From positions 1 through 49,133 of IMG/VR virus record IMGVR_UViG_3300048574_000424: DNA of 49,133 nt, one strand, 5' to 3'. The notes beneath the pieces are model-generated. The model searched no databases. It had not been told where the DNA came from and saw nothing but the letters and a program-made list of their open reading frames with translations. The position numbers and the translations under genes are program-made. This DNA comes from a virus. Its lineage: Duplodnaviria; Caudoviricetes. This document shows positions 1-8,335 of the stretch, in pieces (the stretch's first letter is position 1; each line of letters starts with the position of its first letter).

Positions 1-1329
1 TCAAGGAGATCGCGGCGGCGGGAAGACAGCATCGCTCCAGCCCCCGAGATGCGTGGTGTAGTGCCCTTCGTATCCAACAGACCGGAACACGATGCGAATC
101 ACGAGTTCCCTGATCACCATGGCATGATCCCAGAGATCGGCCTTATCCTCGTCTTCGTCCTCATAGACGCCCGCGTGGACCACGGCGTTCCTAGCCTCTA
201 TCGCCAACTTGATCCTAGCTTGGCCGATGTCGTGATAAGGCACCCCCAGTTTCTCCAGGAGAACGGTCAGCTTGCAAATGAAAGTTCGCCGTTCGAACTC
301 ACCGGAGCGCTTGTACAATTGGTCCCTGGTCTGGGAGAGTGCCTTTCCGCCGAAGGTATCTTTTACCAGTTTTCTGAACACCTTGATGAAGCTCCCGGCC
401 TCCGCTGGTGTCAGCGCCCGCTTTTCCTCATCGGTCAGGCCGACGTCCACAAGATTTTCGAGGGCTGTCATGGCGTGGATCAGGTGCTGAGCCGTGTAGA
501 CAGCGGACAGCAGGAACCAGGACAGGGCCGCGACCAGGTTCTCGCCAACCGGATATGACTGGGCGGCGACCTTGAGGAACTGGCCCTGCTCATGCCAGCG
601 GAATGCCGCCATCTGGGTGCCACGGTCGGGAATTCGACTGAACACCGTCACGGTGATAGTCTTGTCGACCCGGAATTCCCAGACGGGCGCCTCCATGGTC
701 ACGCCCATGGCAAAGGACATGTACCAGCGCACATGGTGCAGGAATGTTTCGGCATTCGGCCGCCATACGTCAGCAGCGGTCTCAGTCGCAGGGGCCTTGA
801 TGGTCAAAATATGGGTCAGGGGGTTCTGGACGGCAGCAGGATCGACCGCACTCATGGCGATTTCACCAAATGCCGAGATGGCTTGCAGCGGCCCATGCCA
901 GTCCGAATGATCGGGCGTACCTCGCAGCCAAAACACCACGGTGGGCCGATCAGCGGGTTGATCGATCTGACGTTCCAAAACCGCCTTGCTGCACCGTCCC
1001 TTGATTGGGAAGCAGTAGCCGTCCTCGCCCCCTTTGTGGCCGATGGTAGTCAGCAGTAGGTGCTCGCTGTGAAATTTCGTTCCGTCTGTCGCCTCCCCTT
1101 CCAATATCAGGTAGGTGACTTTCTCGGTGTGGACGCCCATGAGATTGATGAGGAAGCGGCTCTCTGGGGTCGATGGCACGTCATCAAACCCGATGACGAG
1201 AGTGCCGCTACAGTCCACCCGTGCGGTGAATGCGACGGCCACCGCATTGGCACCGTGGCTGAGAGTGCCTTGAAAGTGCCGCTCCTCCATCAATCCCATG
1301 TCCGCCATTTTCGAGACCACGCCGCTCAT
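1..1329 (-). CDS. HEPN-domain protein, ApeA-like (putative anti-phage RNase)
   Basis: 442 aa; C-terminal helical region with RxxxxH motif (ARNAVVHAG) preceded by 'ALENL'; ATGA overlap with the upstream gene. Confidence 0.6.
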   Translation of the reverse strand: MSGVVSKMADMGLMEERHFQGTLSHGANAVAVAFTARVDCSGTLVIGFDDVPSTPESRFLINLMGVHTEKVTYLILEGEATDGTKFHSEHLLLTTIGHKGGEDGYCFPIKGRCSKAVLERQIDQPADRPTVVFWLRGTPDHSDWHGPLQAISAFGEIAMSAVDPAAVQNPLTHILTIKAPATETAADVWRPNAETFLHHVRWYMSFAMGVTMEAPVWEFRVDKTITVTVFSRIPDRGTQMAAFRWHEQGQFLKVAAQSYPVGENLVAALSWFLLSAVYTAQHLIHAMTALENLVDVGLTDEEKRALTPAEAGSFIKVFRKLVKDTFGGKALSQTRDQLYKRSGEFERRTFICKLTVLLEKLGVPYHDIGQARIKLAIEARNAVVHAGVYEDEDEDKADLWDHAMVIRELVIRIVFRSVGYEGHYTTHLGGWSDAVFPPPRSP

Positions 1330-1916
1330 CGGATTTCAAAGCAGGCGATATCCCACACCCAGCCTCCGGGGTCCTGGACGGAGGGTTGGACGGCCTGATA
1401 GTGGCTGGCACCCGTGCGATCCTTGATCGCCTCGAACCGCCTCTTGATGGTCTCCACCGCCTTCTTGCCCTTGGCGACGGTGTAACCGACCACATAGCCG
1501 GAGTTGATGGGGTTGCTCTTTGCCCCGATCCACTGACGAATCCGCTCGGCGTCACGATTGCAGGAATCCGCGTTCCAAGCCTTCTTGGTCTCGATGATTG
1601 CGCGCGGCAGGCCACCCTTGTACCAGAGCAGCATGTCGAATCGCTCGCGGTCGGACATCTTCACGGTCCTCCGGTCGATTTTCATGTCGACATCGGCCAG
1701 GATCCTCTTGGTCGAAGCTTCCAGGGTCACATAAAGGCGATAGTCCTGATCTTTCAGATCCTTGAAGGCGAGTGCAATGCAGGCCTGGAGAAACGACTCA
1801 GGCGCATTGCCGACCCAATGCCCGCCGCTGAGGTCCTGATATGTTTCAAAGGCGCTCCTGGCGCCGGAGAGGATGGTTTCCATGATGGTGGCGCTGGAGA
1901 TCGCAGACATTGGCAT
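1326..1916 (-). CDS. PD-(D/E)xK nuclease-like protein
   Basis: 196 aa; E (APESFLQ) ... D (RFDMLLW) ... ExK (IIETKK) spacing typical of the restriction-endonuclease fold. Confidence 0.55.
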   Translation of the reverse strand: MPMSAISSATIMETILSGARSAFETYQDLSGGHWVGNAPESFLQACIALAFKDLKDQDYRLYVTLEASTKRILADVDMKIDRRTVKMSDRERFDMLLWYKGGLPRAIIETKKAWNADSCNRDAERIRQWIGAKSNPINSGYVVGYTVAKGKKAVETIKRRFEAIKDRTGASHYQAVQPSVQDPGGWVWDIACFEIR

Positions 1917-2021
1917 CCACTGAAGATGGGCTAACTACCACCGAAGAGTAACCTAGTAGTTGCCAACGGTCACCAGCGCAATGCACGCTTGTCGGCCTCT
2001 GAAGAAGGCCGGAGCAAAACC

Positions 2022-2501
2022 ATGAACGACCTGCCCCCTCCTCCTCTCGATCACGTCGATTGCCACCTGAGCATGGCCTGGCAGGAAGTCGGGCCGCCGA
2101 TCATGGTGGCCGACGACGGTCGCCTAGCCTTCCCCGACATCGGCAAGGCTCCGGGCCTGTACCGTATCACCATCCGGCAGGGAACATCGCGTGAGGTCTA
2201 CATTGGCGAGGCCACCAACCTGAGGCGCCGCTTTCACAACTACCGCAGCCCGGGGCCGACGCAGGAGACCAGCAAGCGGATCAATAAGCTCTTGCTGAAG
2301 GTGTTGGCCGAGGGCGCCGAGATTGGCGTCTCGGTTTCCTTGGCGGCCATGATCGACAGCGGGAACGGTCCAGAACCGGCAAATCTCTCATCCAAAGTGG
2401 TGCGATGTCTCGTGGAGAACGCGGCGATCCTGGTGGCGGCCAGAACGGCCGACCGCATTCACAACCTCGCCCAGATGGTGCCCGACAGTGCGATACCGTG
2501 A
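2022..2501 (+). CDS. GIY-YIG nuclease family protein
   Basis: GLY...YIGEATNLRRRF...E motif; GGAG RBS at 2011-2014 supports ATG 2022. Confidence 0.7.
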   Translation: MNDLPPPPLDHVDCHLSMAWQEVGPPIMVADDGRLAFPDIGKAPGLYRITIRQGTSREVYIGEATNLRRRFHNYRSPGPTQETSKRINKLLLKVLAEGAEIGVSVSLAAMIDSGNGPEPANLSSKVVRCLVENAAILVAARTADRIHNLAQMVPDSAIP

Positions 2502-3360
2502 TACCGATCCCATCAGTCGACTACTCGCTTCGGCGCGCGACTTCCTGGCCTCGCCAAGGGCGATCCGGGAAGCGGCCTCGGCCGTCAAGGGGCCGACCAA
2601 ATGGCGGTTCATCGAAGATCCGGACCTAACGACCTCCTACGAGATTCTCCTCAAGCTCCAGGGCGGCGTCTTGGACCGCTCAGGTGCCGTCGAGGAGGCG
2701 CTGGCCGGGCTGATGACCAAGGGCGCCGAACGTGACGCCCAGGTGGGGTTCCGCGAGATCACGGCCCTGGCGGCTTCCAAGGGCCGATTCATCGGCAACA
2801 TGCCCCGCCTGTGGCCGACGTCGGACTCGATCGGCAAGCTGGAACCGAGCGCCGAGAACATCGCCATGATCCGCCAGCAGGTCTTGGCGGAGTCAGGGTG
2901 TGTGCGAGATGGGCGCTTCAATCTGTACGAAGAAAGCTGGAGCGGCAGGCTGATCGCCCGCAACACCGGCACGGCCAGAAGGATCGCTTGGCTGCACCAC
3001 TATTCCTTCCTGGACCGTGCGCCGATCCCGGCCAGGATCACTCCGCTGGTCCTCGACCAGGCGGCGTTGAAGGTGCTGACCGAGGATCATTGGATCGCCC
3101 TGCTTCCCACGGACGACGGCGCCTGGAAGCTGGCATCGAAGTTGGAAGAGATCGGCGTCCGTGGCGCCGAGAGCGTCGGGGCCGTCTGGTCGCCAGCTTG
3201 CCCCGAAGAACACGATCGAACCCGCTGGTCGATGTTCGCCTGCGACCGGGCCAGCAGACGATACGCTAACGTCCGCTTGGGTTTGATGGACTCCGCCACC
3301 CCCGTCTTCGACTTGTCGCAGTGGCTGACGGGGATCGCGGGCGGCCGGGAAAGGCCGTAA
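2488..3360 (+). CDS. Hypothetical protein
   Basis: 290-aa ORF overlapping the end of the GIY-YIG gene, GC3-rich codons; start uncertain. Confidence 0.6.
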   Translation: MRYRDTDPISRLLASARDFLASPRAIREAASAVKGPTKWRFIEDPDLTTSYEILLKLQGGVLDRSGAVEEALAGLMTKGAERDAQVGFREITALAASKGRFIGNMPRLWPTSDSIGKLEPSAENIAMIRQQVLAESGCVRDGRFNLYEESWSGRLIARNTGTARRIAWLHHYSFLDRAPIPARITPLVLDQAALKVLTEDHWIALLPTDDGAWKLASKLEEIGVRGAESVGAVWSPACPEEHDRTRWSMFACDRASRRYANVRLGLMDSATPVFDLSQWLTGIAGGRERP

Positions 3361-3383: not shown

Positions 3384-4280
3384 TTAAGCCAGTTCCCGCA
3401 CGCCGTCCAGGACCCTGGCGGCGCCTTTGACGTCGATATGCTCGTCCTGTATCAGGATCGGCAGAACTTCCGCCAACCGGGGAAGCGCCGTGATGCCGTA
3501 GGCCGCCAGCATGCGCTCGGCGGCCTCCCTGGCCGGGCCATAGGACCATGGCCCATCCCCTTCCCGGAACCATTGCCGGTCCCGGTAGGCGTGTATTTCT
3601 GCCGTCGGCTTGAGCCGCTCCACCTTGCCACCAACGATGCGCCAGAGGGGGAGATAGTTGCGGGAAAACAACACACGGCTGCCATCCTTCATGTCCATCC
3701 AGCCATATGGCAGCCATAGCAGCAAGGGAACGAAGTCCTTCAGCCGCGTGCGCGGGACGACCGCTTCGTAAGTTGCGCAATCGCCAAGGATCGTCGTGTT
3801 GTCGATGAACGTCACCCCACCGCTGGATTGGCGCCACCAACGACCTTGGGTCCTGGAGAAACCCTTCCTCTTGATGTAGAAAACGGCGCCGGGATGGCGA
3901 CCTCCCTGCCATGGGATTGGGCCAACCCGCCAGCAAGCAGTCCTGATCACCTCGTGGTCGTCGTGGGTGAACCCTCGGTTGCCGGTCAGCCTCATGTCGG
4001 GCAAGGCGGCCTGCACGTCGCCGTCATGGACGTTCAACGCCCCCGCCAGGCCGCGCGACATGGCGATGGCCCGTTCCCGGAAGGCGCCCTCGGGCAGATG
4101 CTCATCCAGCACGGTCGGGTCGGCGCTGCCGTGGCTGACCTCAAGCTCGTTCCAGTCACGGTAACCGCAGGCCATGGCGACGGCCCGCTGGCAGTTGGAC
4201 AGAGAAATGCCTGAGAACACCGAAGCAAGGTGCTTCGCGGCCTTTTTGGGACGGGTAAGATTGGGGAAATGAAAACGCAT
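3384..4280 (-). CDS. Hypothetical protein with N-terminal 'glyoxalase superfamily' (Glyoxalase_8-like) helical domain
   Basis: N-terminal pattern KKAAKHL...LSNCQRAVA..CGYRDWNEL; GGAGG RBS at 4290-4286 before ATG 4280. Confidence 0.65.
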   Translation of the reverse strand: MRFHFPNLTRPKKAAKHLASVFSGISLSNCQRAVAMACGYRDWNELEVSHGSADPTVLDEHLPEGAFRERAIAMSRGLAGALNVHDGDVQAALPDMRLTGNRGFTHDDHEVIRTACWRVGPIPWQGGRHPGAVFYIKRKGFSRTQGRWWRQSSGGVTFIDNTTILGDCATYEAVVPRTRLKDFVPLLLWLPYGWMDMKDGSRVLFSRNYLPLWRIVGGKVERLKPTAEIHAYRDRQWFREGDGPWSYGPAREAAERMLAAYGITALPRLAEVLPILIQDEHIDVKGAARVLDGVRELA

Positions 4281-4415
4281 ACCATCCTCCCTCTCGGCGC
4301 TGAAGAAAGGCGTGTCCACTAAGCCCTGAGCGCCTCGAAAGAGAGTGTCAGGATGGTGATAAGAACCTGCCCCGAAGGCTTCGCCAGTGTGGACGGCACG
4401 GCCGGTTAGCCGATG
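4281..4415 (-). ncRNA. Candidate cis-regulatory structured 5' leader (two mutually exclusive folds)
   Basis: Inverted repeats 4281-4288/4350-4357, 4291-4295/4341-4345, 4296-4301/4329-4334 versus 4314-4319/4389-4394 and 4325-4329/4348-4352; UUCG loops on the minus strand. Confidence 0.55.
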
Positions 4416-4419
4416 CCTA

Positions 4420-4448
4420 ACAATACCAACGGGCGGTCATGGCTGCAA
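4420..4448 (-). promoter_or_regulatory. Sigma70-like promoter TTGCAG-N17-TATTGT
   Basis: -35 at 4448-4443, -10 at 4425-4420, exact 17-nt spacer, ~135 nt upstream of ATG 4280. Confidence 0.55.
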
Positions 4449-4576: not shown

Positions 4577-4954
4577 TCATCCGCCCACATTCAATATCCG
4601 CCGCTGCTCCGCCCACTCCACCGGAAACGGTTCCAGCAGCGCCCGCACGGTTAGCTTCTCTGGCTGCCGCCCAGCGAGAATGGACTCGACGATGTCGGGA
4701 GCCAACAGGGTCAGGCGGAGGATGCGACTGGCGAAGGCCCGGTCGACTCGCTCGGCCTTGGCCAGTTCGTTGATCGAGGCATGACGCCCAGATTCCAGCA
4801 GGCGTCGCCAACGGAAGGCGCGGGCGAGCGACCGGACAATCGGGCTGTCGACGGGAACCCGGGTCTCGGGATTGTAGAGGCTGCCATCGGGCAGGACGAT
4901 GCGCTTGCGTCCGCCGATGCGGCGGAAGGTCATCGGCACGAACACGGTGGTCAT
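4577..4954 (-). CDS. Conserved recombinase-associated HTH-like protein
   Basis: LARAFRWRRLLESG...SRILRLTLLAPDIVESILAGRQP, typical partner of this class of serine recombinases; ATGA overlap with the recombinase. Confidence 0.75.
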   Translation of the reverse strand: MTTVFVPMTFRRIGGRKRIVLPDGSLYNPETRVPVDSPIVRSLARAFRWRRLLESGRHASINELAKAERVDRAFASRILRLTLLAPDIVESILAGRQPEKLTVRALLEPFPVEWAEQRRILNVGG

Positions 4955-6270
4955 GCCGCCGCCCTCCGCCCCTTGGCCGGTTTCAGTTCACCGGCAAGCT
5001 GGGCCAGCCCCTCGGTGCGGAGCGCGATGGCGATGCCGTCGGTGGAGATATCGACGCGCTGGACCAGAAGCTGGACGATGCGGGCCTGTTCAGCGGGGAA
5101 CAGTTCATCCCAAAGCGGGTCAAGCTGGCCCAGAGTGGTGGCGACCTCCTTCTCCGTCATGTCCTCGCCCTCGGCGCGGACGCTCTTCCAGGTGCGGGCC
5201 ACCACCTCGGGGGTGCGCAGCAGCGACCGCAACTGGTCGGTCACCGCATTTTCTACCTGGGCAGCGGGGACGCGGCCAACCGGGCAGGCGTCGGGGCCTT
5301 CCTTGATCACGTTGGTGGTGACGTAATAGCGGTACAGCCGCCCTTTCTTGCGGGTGTGGCTGGGAGTCATGGAGCGGCCGCCGGGGGCGAAAATCAGCCC
5401 CTTCAGCAAAGCTGGCGTCTGCGCCCTGGTGCGGCAGGCCCGCGTACGGGGCGATACCTCCATGACGGATCGGACCTTGTCCCACAGGGTCTGGTCGATG
5501 ATGGCCTCGTGTTCGCCGTCATAGGCGACGCCCTTGTGGACCGCCTTGCCGATATAGAGCGGATTGGCCAGCATCTTGTAGAGGCCGCCCTTGTCCAGCT
5601 TCTTGCCCCGGCGGGTGATGCCTTCCTCGGCCAGTTCCTTGACCAGCAGGGTGGCGGAGCCGAGGCGGATGAACCGCTCGAAGATCATTCGCACGGTGGC
5701 GGCCTCTTCCTCCACCACCAGCAGCTTGCGGTCGGCGCAGCGGTAGCCGAAAGGCAGCGGCCCGCCCATCCAGATTCCCTTGCGCCGCGAGGCGGCCACC
5801 TTGTCGCGCACCCGCTCACCGATCACTTCGCGCTCGAACTGGGCGAAGGACAGCAGGATGTTGAGCGTCAGCCGCCCCATCGATGTGGTGGTGTTGAACG
5901 ACTGGGTGATGCTGACGAAGGTGACGTCGTTGCGGTCGAACACCTCGACCAGCTTGGAGAAATCCATCAGCGATCGCGACAGGCGGTCGATTTTGTAGAC
6001 CACCACCACGTCCACCAACCCGGCTTCGATATCGCCGAGCAGGCGCCGCAGGCCGGGGCGCTCCAGGGTGCCGCCGGAAAAACCGCCATCGTCGTAATGG
6101 GTCGGGACCAGCACCCAGCCTTCGGCCTTCTGGCTGGCGACATAGGCTTCGCAGGATTCCCGCTGGGCATCCAGCGAGTTGAACTCCATCTCGAGGCCTT
6201 CCTCGGTGGACTTGCGGGTATAGACGGCGCAGCGCAGCTTGCGGATCATTTTGGGCGCGGCGGTCTTCAT
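4951..6270 (-). CDS. Large serine recombinase / integrase
   Basis: YTRKS catalytic serine, YDDGGFSGG, KIDRLSR, recombinase domain; start MKTAAPK overlaps the upstream stop. Confidence 0.93.
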   Translation of the reverse strand: MKTAAPKMIRKLRCAVYTRKSTEEGLEMEFNSLDAQRESCEAYVASQKAEGWVLVPTHYDDGGFSGGTLERPGLRRLLGDIEAGLVDVVVVYKIDRLSRSLMDFSKLVEVFDRNDVTFVSITQSFNTTTSMGRLTLNILLSFAQFEREVIGERVRDKVAASRRKGIWMGGPLPFGYRCADRKLLVVEEEAATVRMIFERFIRLGSATLLVKELAEEGITRRGKKLDKGGLYKMLANPLYIGKAVHKGVAYDGEHEAIIDQTLWDKVRSVMEVSPRTRACRTRAQTPALLKGLIFAPGGRSMTPSHTRKKGRLYRYYVTTNVIKEGPDACPVGRVPAAQVENAVTDQLRSLLRTPEVVARTWKSVRAEGEDMTEKEVATTLGQLDPLWDELFPAEQARIVQLLVQRVDISTDGIAIALRTEGLAQLAGELKPAKGRRAAA

Positions 6271-6710
6271 GCCCCCTTCCTCCAGTTCTTCAGGCCGAAG
6301 AAGGCCAAGCCGTTCCAGCGGGTGCCGGTAATGACGCGGGCCACCGCCGACAGGCTCTGGTAGGGGCGGCCCTGGTATTCGAAGCCGTCCTCGCGCACGG
6401 TGACGCAGTGCTCGACACCCTTCCATTCCCGTACCAGCCTTGTGCCGGCGATGGGGCGGTCCAGTTCCTTTTTACGGCGGCCCTTGGTGGTGTCGAAATC
6501 CTCGGCCATGTTTTCGAGGCGGGCGATGGTGGTGACCGCCAGCCCGCCATAGGCCAGTTCCTGGAGGCGGTAGGCCAGGCGGCTTTCCAGGAAGGTTCGG
6601 TTGTAGGGCGGTGCCTCGGCCTCGAACAGATCGCGCCACAGCGCCTTCAGCTCGGGGATCGGTGCGGTCTTCAGGGCGGCCAGGCGGGCCAGCAGCGGTT
6701 CCTCGGTCAT
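6267..6710 (-). CDS. DUF2924-like protein
   Basis: LAYRLQELAYGGL...GTRLVREWKG...SLSAVARVITGTRWNG..FFGL signature; directly upstream of the recombinase. Confidence 0.85.
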   Translation of the reverse strand: MTEEPLLARLAALKTAPIPELKALWRDLFEAEAPPYNRTFLESRLAYRLQELAYGGLAVTTIARLENMAEDFDTTKGRRKKELDRPIAGTRLVREWKGVEHCVTVREDGFEYQGRPYQSLSAVARVITGTRWNGLAFFGLKNWRKGA

Positions 6711-6904: not shown

Positions 6905-7207
6905 TGCTGTGTCGACGGTCGTGGTGAGAGGCCGACAGGAAAATTAAGCGCGGAACAGTCGCTCCACAAAACAATTCATTCCGCCATCGCATCGGATGGA
7001 AAACAAAGGAAGCGGTGCGCGATCGTGCGAAAATCGCCCTAACCGCAGCGATGTCGACCGAGCCAAAATTCCGCGACGAACCGGATCGTTATCGGATTTC
7101 AAGCGCGTAGCGCCATCCACAATCGATTGATATTCAATAATATTTTCGGATAATTCATTTGTTGAAAATTTTGGTCTGGTCCGGGTAGGGGAATTTTGCC
7201 GAGGATA

Positions 7208-8335
7208 ATGGCATTCACACCGACGGAGGCCATCGTGACGTTCCTTGATGCTATCCTCCCCCGCAAGAAGCCCGCCCCCCGGTATCCAGGTCCGGGGGCG
7301 GCAACGGCCCTGCTCAACGATATCCGGCCCTACGATCTCCAGACGCCGTATCGCTACCACCAGATCACTGCCGGTGCCGTTGCCTTGGCTGCATCTCAGG
7401 GGCATATCGAGGTCGCGGCGCTGGCGGCAGCGGAGGAGTTCCGCGAGGCCCTGTGCAAGAAGACCGGCTGGCACCAGCCTCGAAGCTTTATCGACCTCGC
7501 CATGAAAGTACCCGCACCGGAGCGGACGGATCGGACCATCGACCTCGGCTTTATCTGGCGCCTGTGCATGGTCAAATATTTCGCCCATGTCTGGACCGAG
7601 CCGCCAACCCTGACCAAATTCAGGGACGATGTGGCCACCGTCCAGCAGGCGGCCTTGTATTGCCCGGAGGTGCTGCTGCCCCTGCTGTGCCGGATGTCGG
7701 AGAAGTACGACGAGGGCTTGTGGATGGTCGGCGAGCACTATCAGAGTTGGCGAAGCCTGTTTCCCAGGATGTTCTGGTCCTGGGAAAAACTATTGCCCAA
7801 GGATTGGGACGGCTCGCCGGAATGGCTGCCATCACAGGAGTTCCGGGCGGATGTGGACTTCGACTGCATGCACATTCTCCATGAAATCGAGCTTCACCAG
7901 CAGACCGTTTCAAACCGCGGCAACAAGGGCAATGCCCTCCTGGCCAAGGTCGTCAGCGAGTGTTGGTATCAATGGCGGTGGTGCGGTCGCGGCGACCCCA
8001 CCGCGCGCGGCCAGTTCCGACAATTCCAGAAATTTGTCGAGGATTGCATGGATCTCCTGGCTCCACGGGGCACGCCCAAGGGCTCCCGTAACACCATTCA
8101 TGAGTATGTGAAGAGCCTCGTTGAAGAAGACGAGACCGGCCGGGCTCCCTGGCTTTCGGGCGAAGAGACCATCCCGGGAGGAAAGCGGGCTGATTTGGTG
8201 CGAGGGCATAACAAAAGCTACTTTCCCCGGCGGCGAAAGTACTTCTGGTCGATTCTGCGCATCCGGCTCAAGGCGTATTGGAACCTGATCCGGGGCTATC
8301 CCGCGTCATGGGACAACCACGACCGGATCATGTGA
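7208..8335 (+). CDS. Hypothetical protein (moron-like)
   Basis: 375-aa Trp/Cys-rich ORF, GAGG before ATG 7208, preceded by an AT-rich intergenic region. Confidence 0.7.
   Translation: MAFTPTEAIVTFLDAILPRKKPAPRYPGPGAATALLNDIRPYDLQTPYRYHQITAGAVALAASQGHIEVAALAAAEEFREALCKKTGWHQPRSFIDLAMKVPAPERTDRTIDLGFIWRLCMVKYFAHVWTEPPTLTKFRDDVATVQQAALYCPEVLLPLLCRMSEKYDEGLWMVGEHYQSWRSLFPRMFWSWEKLLPKDWDGSPEWLPSQEFRADVDFDCMHILHEIELHQQTVSNRGNKGNALLAKVVSECWYQWRWCGRGDPTARGQFRQFQKFVEDCMDLLAPRGTPKGSRNTIHEYVKSLVEEDETGRAPWLSGEETIPGGKRADLVRGHNKSYFPRRRKYFWSILRIRLKAYWNLIRGYPASWDNHDRIM

Follow-up and report, generated by a model that had tools for sequence, protein, structure and literature searches.

Within the virus record IMGVR_UViG_3300048574_000424 (Duplodnaviria; Caudoviricetes), the whole 49,133 nt of which were analysed and are referred to here as the window, an uncharacterised gene for a 298-aa protein is preceded by a 135-nt leader, which raises the question of what this RNA controls and to which part of the downstream protein it belongs. 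The initial annotation had described a riboswitch-like or protein-bound translational switch with two incompatible folds, one leaving the ribosome-binding site (RBS) free (ON) and one burying it (OFF), in which a small basic N-terminal domain could bind the RNA and a C-terminal domain could act as a toxin or defence effector. Coordinates of the features discussed below are collected in Table 1.

Table 1. Position, strand and supporting evidence for the leader elements, the gene and the adjoining integration module
Feature	Position	Strand	Content and evidence
Prophage integration module	4577..6710	-	DUF2924, serine recombinase and accessory gene; a short way upstream of leader, same strand
-35 hexamer TTGCAG (predicted)	4443..4448	-	sequence; positional conservation in family; 17 nt to TATTGT
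-10 hexamer TATTGT (predicted)	4420..4425	-	sequence; positional conservation in family
Hairpin P1 (CGGC/GCCG)	4399..4412	-	swap test z -5.5, 39/48; loop carries PK1 5' strand
PK1 5' strand AACC	4404..4407	-	pairs with 4364-4367; z -5.8, 36/48 family A
Hairpin P2 (UGCC/GGCG)	4382..4398	-	9-nt loop, then conserved GAA junction; 97.8% of cells paired, 2/4 pairs compensatory
5' kissing hexamer GUCCAC	4389..4394	-	in P2 loop; 98.7% paired, 5/6 pairs compensatory, 38 mixed leaders
Hairpin P3 (GCC-UUCGG-GGC)	4369..4379	-	pair counts; restricted to families A and B; canonical PF20066 leaders lack it
PK1 3' strand GGUU	4364..4367	-	swap test
Long helix P5 (predicted OFF fold)	4281..4357	-	three segments, 19 bp; z -10.9, 48/48; buries SD up to start codon
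Alternative hairpin P4 (CCUGA/UCAGG; predicted ON helix)	4325..4352	-	z -6.2, 41/48; holds anti-SD and 5' arms of P5/P6
Hairpin P6 (GGGC/GCCU)	4308..4326	-	displays 3' kissing hexamer; z -4.2 family A, 34/48
3' kissing hexamer GUGGAC	4314..4319	-	covariation with GUCCAC
Shine-Dalgarno GGAGG	4286..4290	-	sequence; AUG at 4280
298-aa gene (family A)	3384..4280	-	N-domain, helical domain, two beta-rich domains including LPYG..DG..VLFSRNY.PLW part
N-terminal three-helix domain, residues 1-50	4131..4280	-	helices 9-21, 27-37, 43-49; 7 K/R vs 3 D/E

Genomic setting of the leader and its gene

The window carried prophage genes (terminase, portal, protease, major head, tape measure and primase-helicase), with the leader and its gene at the left end on the minus strand. 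At a related locus, L003, the family-A gene was linked to its two downstream neighbours and the recombinase, with extra DNA between the recombinase and the leader. Since the gene is linked to the recombinase module both here and in L003, it looks like cargo at the integration end of the prophage. Further unannotated cargo was located at 1-3360 and 7196-8335, including minus-strand genes of 442 aa and 196 aa, the latter with a weak restriction-nuclease-like match, a weak GIY-YIG gene and a 290-aa gene that converge on the leader and its gene, and, in the interval from the recombinase module to the S24 repressor, a gene for 379 aa. An out-of-frame 83-codon ORF (4034-4285, minus strand) began 5 nt ahead of the true AUG, leaving no gap to the Shine-Dalgarno (SD) sequence; it was also present in four close homologues (L178, L184, L362 and L363) and is probably a by-product of conservation.

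Neighbouring genes differed between family-A loci (87 of 117 picked neighbour ORFs scanned, 21 loci). Defence-like or mobile genes (methylase, HEPN, a pair of AAA and UvrD, AbiE, SMODS-SAVED, Mrr, integrase and resolvase) were found near approximately 10 of the 21 loci, a hint that the family-A genes take part in conflict but no demonstration of toxicity or of a fixed partner. At one locus (L039:1614-4604) a SMODS nucleotidyltransferase and a SAVED-domain gene, a CBASS-like arrangement, adjoined the family-A gene.

Identification and conservation of the leader

The motifs named in the initial annotation were all present on the minus strand where it had placed them: GUCCAC (4394) and GUGGAC (4319), CCUGA (4352) and UCAGG (4329), and the segments ACCAUCCU (4357) with AGGAUGGU (4288), CUCUC (4345) with GAGAG (4295) and GGCGCU (4334) with AGCGCC (4301), which total 19 bp. 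Taken alone the leader was only modestly stable (z -1.8; 12 of 200 shuffles were equally good), and it was the family comparison that put the structured leader beyond chance and confirmed it as real. A protein search returned 38 matches including the query, and a genome scan returned 55 loci at 28-85% identity, mostly from Alphaproteobacteria. A covariance-model match occurred at the gene start in 48 of these 55 loci (29 of the 48 being sequences of the training alignment), and of the remaining seven loci one lay at the end of a contig, while in six the match to the protein was confined to its C-terminal part. Among five close homologues the leader was 96-99% identical, against 77-88% over the first 300 coding nucleotides, and identity fell to 23-33% upstream of the leader (all ungapped). 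By this comparison the 135-nt leader is a conserved RNA sequence in front of an uncharacterised gene.

In 43 of 48 family-A leaders the -10 element of the best sigma70-like match ended 21-24 nt before P2; in all 32 canonical leaders, that is, those of genes of the Pfam family Glyoxalase_8 (PF20066), the distance was 18-23 nt. From this spacing, transcription would start near 4414-4413, at the base of P1. A consensus promoter scanner reported 0 sites for the TTGCAG/TATTGT promoter. No terminator-like site was found on the minus strand between 4415 and 4280, and each locus had one strong RNA match, without repeats of the RNA. A conserved in-frame GUG start was considered and rejected, as the GUG of the hexamer was distributed over the three frames (19/13/16); at this locus the upstream GUG is in frame, and its frame was not conserved across family A.

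A search of Rfam, which the initial annotation had proposed as a check, placed the leader in no family: the Rfam 15 covariance models gave 0 matches at the gathering threshold in the window and in 18 related loci, and the best sub-threshold match (E 0.54) was on the opposite strand. No relative was found in annotated phages, and one plasmid gave a 36-nt match. A look-up of sequencing runs listed no holder of RNA, which counts neither for nor against the leader. The literature searched, which excluded most subscription journals, contained no description of Glyoxalase_8, PF20066 or IPR045517, nor of such an RNA; the main texts of a 50-genome and a 224-motif survey made no mention of glyoxalase, ankyrin or ClpX, and their supplements may hold the motif. 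The leader RNA is uncatalogued with respect to Rfam 15 and the literature searched.

Core fold of the leader

Covariation was evaluated in 58 leaders kept from 124 at <80% identity (48 of family A, nine of family B and one other), one leader (L053) having been left out because of a misassigned start. In the swap test each leader's 5' strand was scored with its own and with swapped 3' strands, relatedness being ignored. As delineated by these comparisons, the core consists of P1, P2, P3, the pseudoknot PK1, which the initial annotation had overlooked, and a kiss between GUCCAC and GUGGAC, and the leader is predicted to fold into two pseudoknots (PK1 and the kiss). PK1 was also recovered in canonical leaders (z -11.6, 29/30), as was P6 (z -8.5, where P6 alone was compared, without the long P4), and P2 was paired in 98.2% of cells across subfamilies. 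The kissing hexamers changed in step across subfamilies, with nine hexamer pairs in 33 loci, and the GAA after P2 and the A before the 3' hexamer were conserved junction bases.

Several of the annotated pairings were revised. The outer GGCA/UGCC pairs of the proposed 5' hairpin are not the conserved ones; UGCC pairs with GGCG in P2, with compensatory changes in 9 of 58 leaders, and the outer helix was rejected. The proposed cUUCGg hairpin is present here as P3, and its UUCG loop sequence varies in the family. GUCCAC/GUGGAC had been assigned to a stem of the ON fold, whereas the pairing is a loop-loop kiss that joins the loop of P2 to the one closed by P6. In 50 of the 58 leaders the OFF fold places GUGGAC in a 7-12 nt hairpin loop, so the kiss is compatible with that fold and can coexist with a buried SD.

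Five control pairings in family A gave z values of -0.6, +1.7, -2.2, +1.4 and -3.8, the worst being the PK1 5' strand against the SD. As the last of these shows that relatedness alone gives z near -4, P6 (-4.2) and the anti-SD/SD pairing (-4.0) are not clearly above control in family A. With 19 leaders chosen by protein only, PK1 (-5.7) and P5 (-5.9) stood, and P4 (-3.1), P1 (-2.5) and P6 (-2.6) came close to the most extreme control (-2.6). In the model alignment, where 11 of the 72 rows were weak chance matches, 78.5% of cells were paired, versus 71.1% for shuffled rows and 33.8-48.8% for slid helices. Covariation among homologous leaders, on which the annotated switch hinged, was present for P1, PK1, P2, the kiss, P4, P5 and P6, with P6 near control in family A.

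Three divergent leaders (L291, L306 and L338) had longer or shifted kissing segments and escaped the strict motif, with P1, PK1 and P2 discernible by eye. An HDV-like ribozyme topology was rejected because its helix order differs from the order here.

Rival folds over the ribosome-binding site

P4 conflicted with the OFF fold (P5/P6) in 46 of 48 family-A leaders. The annotated idea of rival folds over the RBS was thus supported, but the true alternatives are P4 and P5/P6, and GUCCAC/GUGGAC is not excluded by the OFF fold. Predicted energies at this locus were -33.1 kcal/mol for the OFF fold and -10.1 kcal/mol for P4, a lead for the OFF fold without protein of approximately 23 kcal/mol here (median 15). 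P4 was the minimum-energy fold until approximately 14 nt before the start codon (median of 46 leaders; 16 here), after which P5/P6 won, and the findpath barrier from P4 to P5/P6 was 4.5 kcal/mol here with a family median of 7.7. For a transcript ending before the SD, the minimum-energy fold had GUCCAC/GUGGAC together with P4. The SD was buried in 48 of 48 leaders versus 380 of 480 shuffles, and SD burial alone is weak evidence. In the nine family-B leaders covariation supported neither the long P5 (z -0.7) nor P4 (z +0.5), and a short local hairpin hid the SD in six of them.

Association of the RNA with the N-terminal domain

An RNA-only pattern identified 114 metagenome loci, 79 of which scored at least 19 bits with the model; invariance of the core in this set was partly built in by the search pattern. 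Seventy-five of the 79 copies preceded a gene for the N-domain, at approximately 25-36 nt before its start, two preceded a frameshifted one, one was cut by an insertion at the start codon and one had none. Two further true cases scored <19 bits. The genes behind the metagenome RNAs were of family A (52), family B (24) and, in one case, encoded a 425-aa protein. An RNA-first search of 151 genomes gave 19 matches, of which all 16 at E<=1.5e-4 preceded a domain gene (eight not in training) and the three weakest were without the 3' half. A search of genomes at the family level also gave 12 weak matches (E>1e-5) that were left out of account, and the four inspected had neither a domain gene nor the 3' half. 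Starting from the domain, the strict RNA motif was present in 33 of 41 loci, compared with 1 of 820 shuffles and 0 of 41 coding controls, and six of the misses (L291, L306, L309, L312, L336 and L338) had a related fold by eye. A short viral pattern gave three true cases among 34 matches and a relaxed pattern five among 84, the rest being taken as chance.

The part of the protein behind the N-domain was exchangeable. Among the best 150 domain matches, 45 of 101 long proteins were without the family-A C-terminal domain, and domain genes behind canonical leaders had the same RNA architecture with other kissing hexamers. Fused parts included AAA and Sel1 domains by Pfam and others that we presume, from inspection by eye, to be VOC-, Lon-substrate-binding-, ClpX-zinc-finger- and ankyrin-like. 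Different C-terminal parts also followed the domain in L294, L141 and the zinc-finger-like family B, whose 209-aa proteins combine the N-domain with a CxxC...H...H motif and an unrelated C-terminus. Members of family B (L091, L098, L100, L117 and others) shared a conserved WFDRS...GYW.KHP.F segment, and the family had no Pfam or NCBIfam match. At L294 in genome G039 a family-A-type RNA and N-domain were combined with another C-terminal domain through a recent swap; in that genome a VOC-like fusion (L351) was preceded by a canonical RNA whose kissing hexamer differed.

Two domain genes were without an adjacent leader because both sit behind a transporter gene, and in each case the RNA was found before the transporter. 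In L309 (1529-3487) and L310 (minus strand) the order was RNA, transporter gene and a Glyoxalase_8 domain gene overlapping its stop codon, the first gene being a MATE transporter by Pfam in L309 and of similar size in L310. This operon layout had been predicted from the model before the upstream sequence was examined. The transporter may itself be under the control of the switch.

Several loci had altered arrangements. Approximately 130 extra bases, with a short ORF first, separated RNA and domain gene at L311:806-1081, perhaps a remnant of a lost first gene. In L365 and L377 (two contig ends of G224) an insertion interrupted the leader within P4; it had short inverted ends that matched imperfectly and seemed to have duplicated 3 bases of its target, and the gene start behind it looked intact. 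At L140:1916-1968 a complete leader was followed by insertion-sequence-like DNA at the start codon.

The tight link of leader and N-terminal domain that had been guessed at the outset was borne out by 77 of 79 metagenome copies (two frameshifted) and 16 of 16 strong genome matches. In these sequence sets the RNA follows the N-terminal three-helix domain, whatever comes after it, and not the C-terminal part.

Features of the encoded protein

The AlphaFold2 model (52 sequences; pLDDT 94.8, pTM 0.90) had three short helices (9-49) followed by a further helical domain, a pair of beta-rich domains and a tail that is helical. The N-domain was homologous to the N-terminal part of Glyoxalase_8 (hhalign 94.7%, E 6.2e-8, residues 4-59), so that the Glyoxalase_8-like label of the initial annotation held by profile-profile comparison, but the Pfam score was below the cut-off (12.3 versus 23.7 bits, E 0.18) and 2 of 25 members had any weak match. 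The highest score with the N-domain profile was obtained by a 1279-aa protein (P0040) through 15 short repeated stretches.

The proposed role of the C-terminal domain as a toxin or defence effector found no such footing. At normal thresholds, Pfam, PHROGs, NCBIfam and PADLOC gave no match to the 298-aa protein, including this domain; toxin and defence families gave nothing across 52 members beyond two weak single matches; and this RNA also precedes VOC-like, Lon-like, ClpX-zinc-finger-like and ankyrin-like fusions as well as MATE operons. Foldseek comparison with the PDB and BFVD returned no match at E<=0.001 for either model, a VIA structural search gave best Z values of 5.8 and 4.5 with no clear structural relative, and the ESM Atlas gave weak leads only. 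Residues 190-249 matched Sm/Lsm barrels weakly (best Z 4.5, rmsd 3.5, 56 residues). Among short proteins no stand-alone C-terminal domain was found beyond one fragment.

Proposed mechanism and alternative explanations

Sequence comparison establishes the conserved helices, the two rival folds in family A and the RNA-domain link. The RNA follows one domain across unrelated fusions and heads operons that contain it, and the simplest reading is that the domain binds the RNA; the N-domain is thus the predicted RNA-binding partner of the leader. On balance we regard it as probable that leader and domain form a portable autoregulatory module, in which the N-domain binds the kissed double-pseudoknot fold, keeps the RBS buried and shuts down translation. 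P4 is predicted to form first during transcription and to leave the SD free. Once the SD has been made, P5/P6 would be far more stable than P4, across the barrier calculated for this locus, and P6 would display GUGGAC to kiss the P2 loop. The basic N-domain may then recognise the kissed core and speed or lock the predicted change from P4 to P5/P6. Repression is the direction of control that we infer, as negative autoregulation by kinetic competition, where P4 would open a short translation window and the N-domain-bound core would close it. A cell newly given the element would translate the gene briefly, and the accumulated protein would then shut the window. Since the OFF fold is predicted to win without protein, a repressor would be needed only if control is kinetic; an activator would fit the predicted energies at least as well, and the co-occurrence of RNA and domain could come from common ancestry of a leader linked to the gene instead of from binding.

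Positive control, a model near to the annotated ON fold and to plasmid repZ, with the long-range GUCCAC/GUGGAC pairing formed together with P4 and the domain or another factor stabilising the open state against a default SD-burying helix, is unlikely in our estimate. A factor that holds the ON state would be useful with OFF as the predicted equilibrium by a wide margin, the predicted fold of a transcript ending before the SD has just this combination, and pseudoknot-dependent translation is described for repZ (PMC8383071). Covariation of P6 in canonical leaders, which in the OFF fold holds the hexamer in a hairpin loop, speaks against it, and positive feedback on the gene's own first translation would need a trigger, none of which is evident. 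Somewhat less probable again is a small-molecule or ion riboswitch, with the double-pseudoknot core as the aptamer and the link to the domain reflecting a common signal. Its compact core, conserved junction bases and expression platform, together with downstream genes that resemble detoxification or export functions (VOC-like, MATE), are set against the observations that, one metagenome case excepted, no confident copy of the RNA preceded a gene or operon without the domain, that the downstream cargo shared no common chemistry, and that no Rfam riboswitch matched. Exclusive folds of the riboswitch kind were supported in family A and not in family B.

An RNA antitoxin or RNA-gated effector of the type III toxin-antitoxin or AbiF style, in which the RNA would hold a toxic C-terminal domain inactive, ranks lower still and we consider it improbable. 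Family-A genes are solitary cargo with defence-like or mobile genes beside approximately half of the scanned loci, and the AbiF upstream RNA is described as repressing expression and neutralising the toxin by direct binding (10.1101/2025.04.15.648962). Against this reading count the scarcity of toxin or defence matches noted above, the lack of a terminator between RNA and gene and of RNA repeats, the many partner fusions that look non-toxic, and two loci (L004 and L034) where an insertion or deletion has damaged the leader while the gene start seems intact, though these genes may simply be silent. It is very improbable that there is no RNA switch at all and that the conserved bases serve as DNA operators for a three-helix domain that binds DNA, or make up a static fold whose only effect is to lower translation. 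Three-helix domains often bind DNA and the single-sequence stability was modest; compensatory changes in two pseudoknots whose sequence is free to vary fit RNA pairing and not DNA sites, and two exclusive helices were both kept in family A.

Extending the autoregulatory reading, the double-pseudoknot leader and its 50-residue reader domain might constitute a widespread and so far undescribed plug-in device bolted onto unrelated proteins and operons, with the fused cargo (protease-adaptor-like, ankyrin, VOC or zinc finger, and here an Sm-like barrel) acting as a sensor that releases or tightens the RNA, a form of one-component RNA signalling in which subfamily kissing codes would separate paralogues in one genome. 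This extension is speculative and we hold it only tentatively.

If the autoregulatory reading is true, a function would be provided for a Pfam family of misleading name, Glyoxalase_8, which was above cut-off in 28 of 301 sampled genomes of the phylum, the broader N-domain profile having matches in 807 clusters at 50% identity. A complex new RNA fold would also join the short list of protein-sensing leaders outside ribosomal operons. The naturally varied pair of a 50-residue domain and a 135-nt cognate switch could serve as a compact translational feedback part. This locus adds a subfamily with P3, covariation in support of both rival folds, and the operons headed by the RNA.

Comparison with known systems

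The genes of PF20066 have a homologous N-terminal 55 residues and carry a homologous leader. Here, unlike PF20066, the C-terminal half of the Pfam model was unmatched, and this subfamily's RNA differs in having P3 and in missing a hairpin that is inserted into the P2 loop. As with AbiF (10.1101/2025.04.15.648962), a conserved RNA lies upstream of a mobile-element gene and is proposed to bind that gene's product; unlike AbiF and type III toxin-antitoxin systems, there is no HEPN or Abi domain, repeat or terminator here, and the cargo domains vary.

For repZ of the IncI plasmid ColIb-P9, translation is pseudoknot-dependent (PMC8383071), and the likeness is that pairing between a hairpin loop and a site shortly before the RBS bears on translation, in both cases on a mobile element. 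In the leader described here no conserved leader peptide was seen, unlike repZ, and the 3' partner is predicted to lie in a hairpin loop of the closed fold. A consensus promoter scan found no opposite-strand promoter for an antisense RNA, the scanner having also returned 0 sites for the leader's own promoter. Rop (Rom) of ColE1 stabilises a kissing complex and so offers a precedent for a small protein that stabilises a loop-loop helix (PMC3127992). Rop differs in acting on an intermolecular complex in replication control, and the sequence and fold searches described above gave no likeness to Rop.

Ribosomal-protein leaders share with this system a structured 5' UTR, control at the level of the RBS and a presumed ligand gene that need not be first in the operon, the ligand often not being encoded by the first gene (PMC7247131). 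A class of 'protein binding candidate' leaders is defined in PMC11109978. The partner here differs in being a small domain on unrelated cargo, with binding predicted, and the RNA has two pseudoknots and no Rfam family. In keeping with autogenous leaders, a conserved covarying structure was found in the 5' UTR over the RBS, upstream of the gene or operon of one common domain (77/79, 16/16 and two operons). By testable features the leader/domain pair is a member of none of the ribosomal-protein, repZ, Rop and AbiF systems; by analogy it would work most like the ribosomal-protein leaders, as a variant of autogenous leader control.
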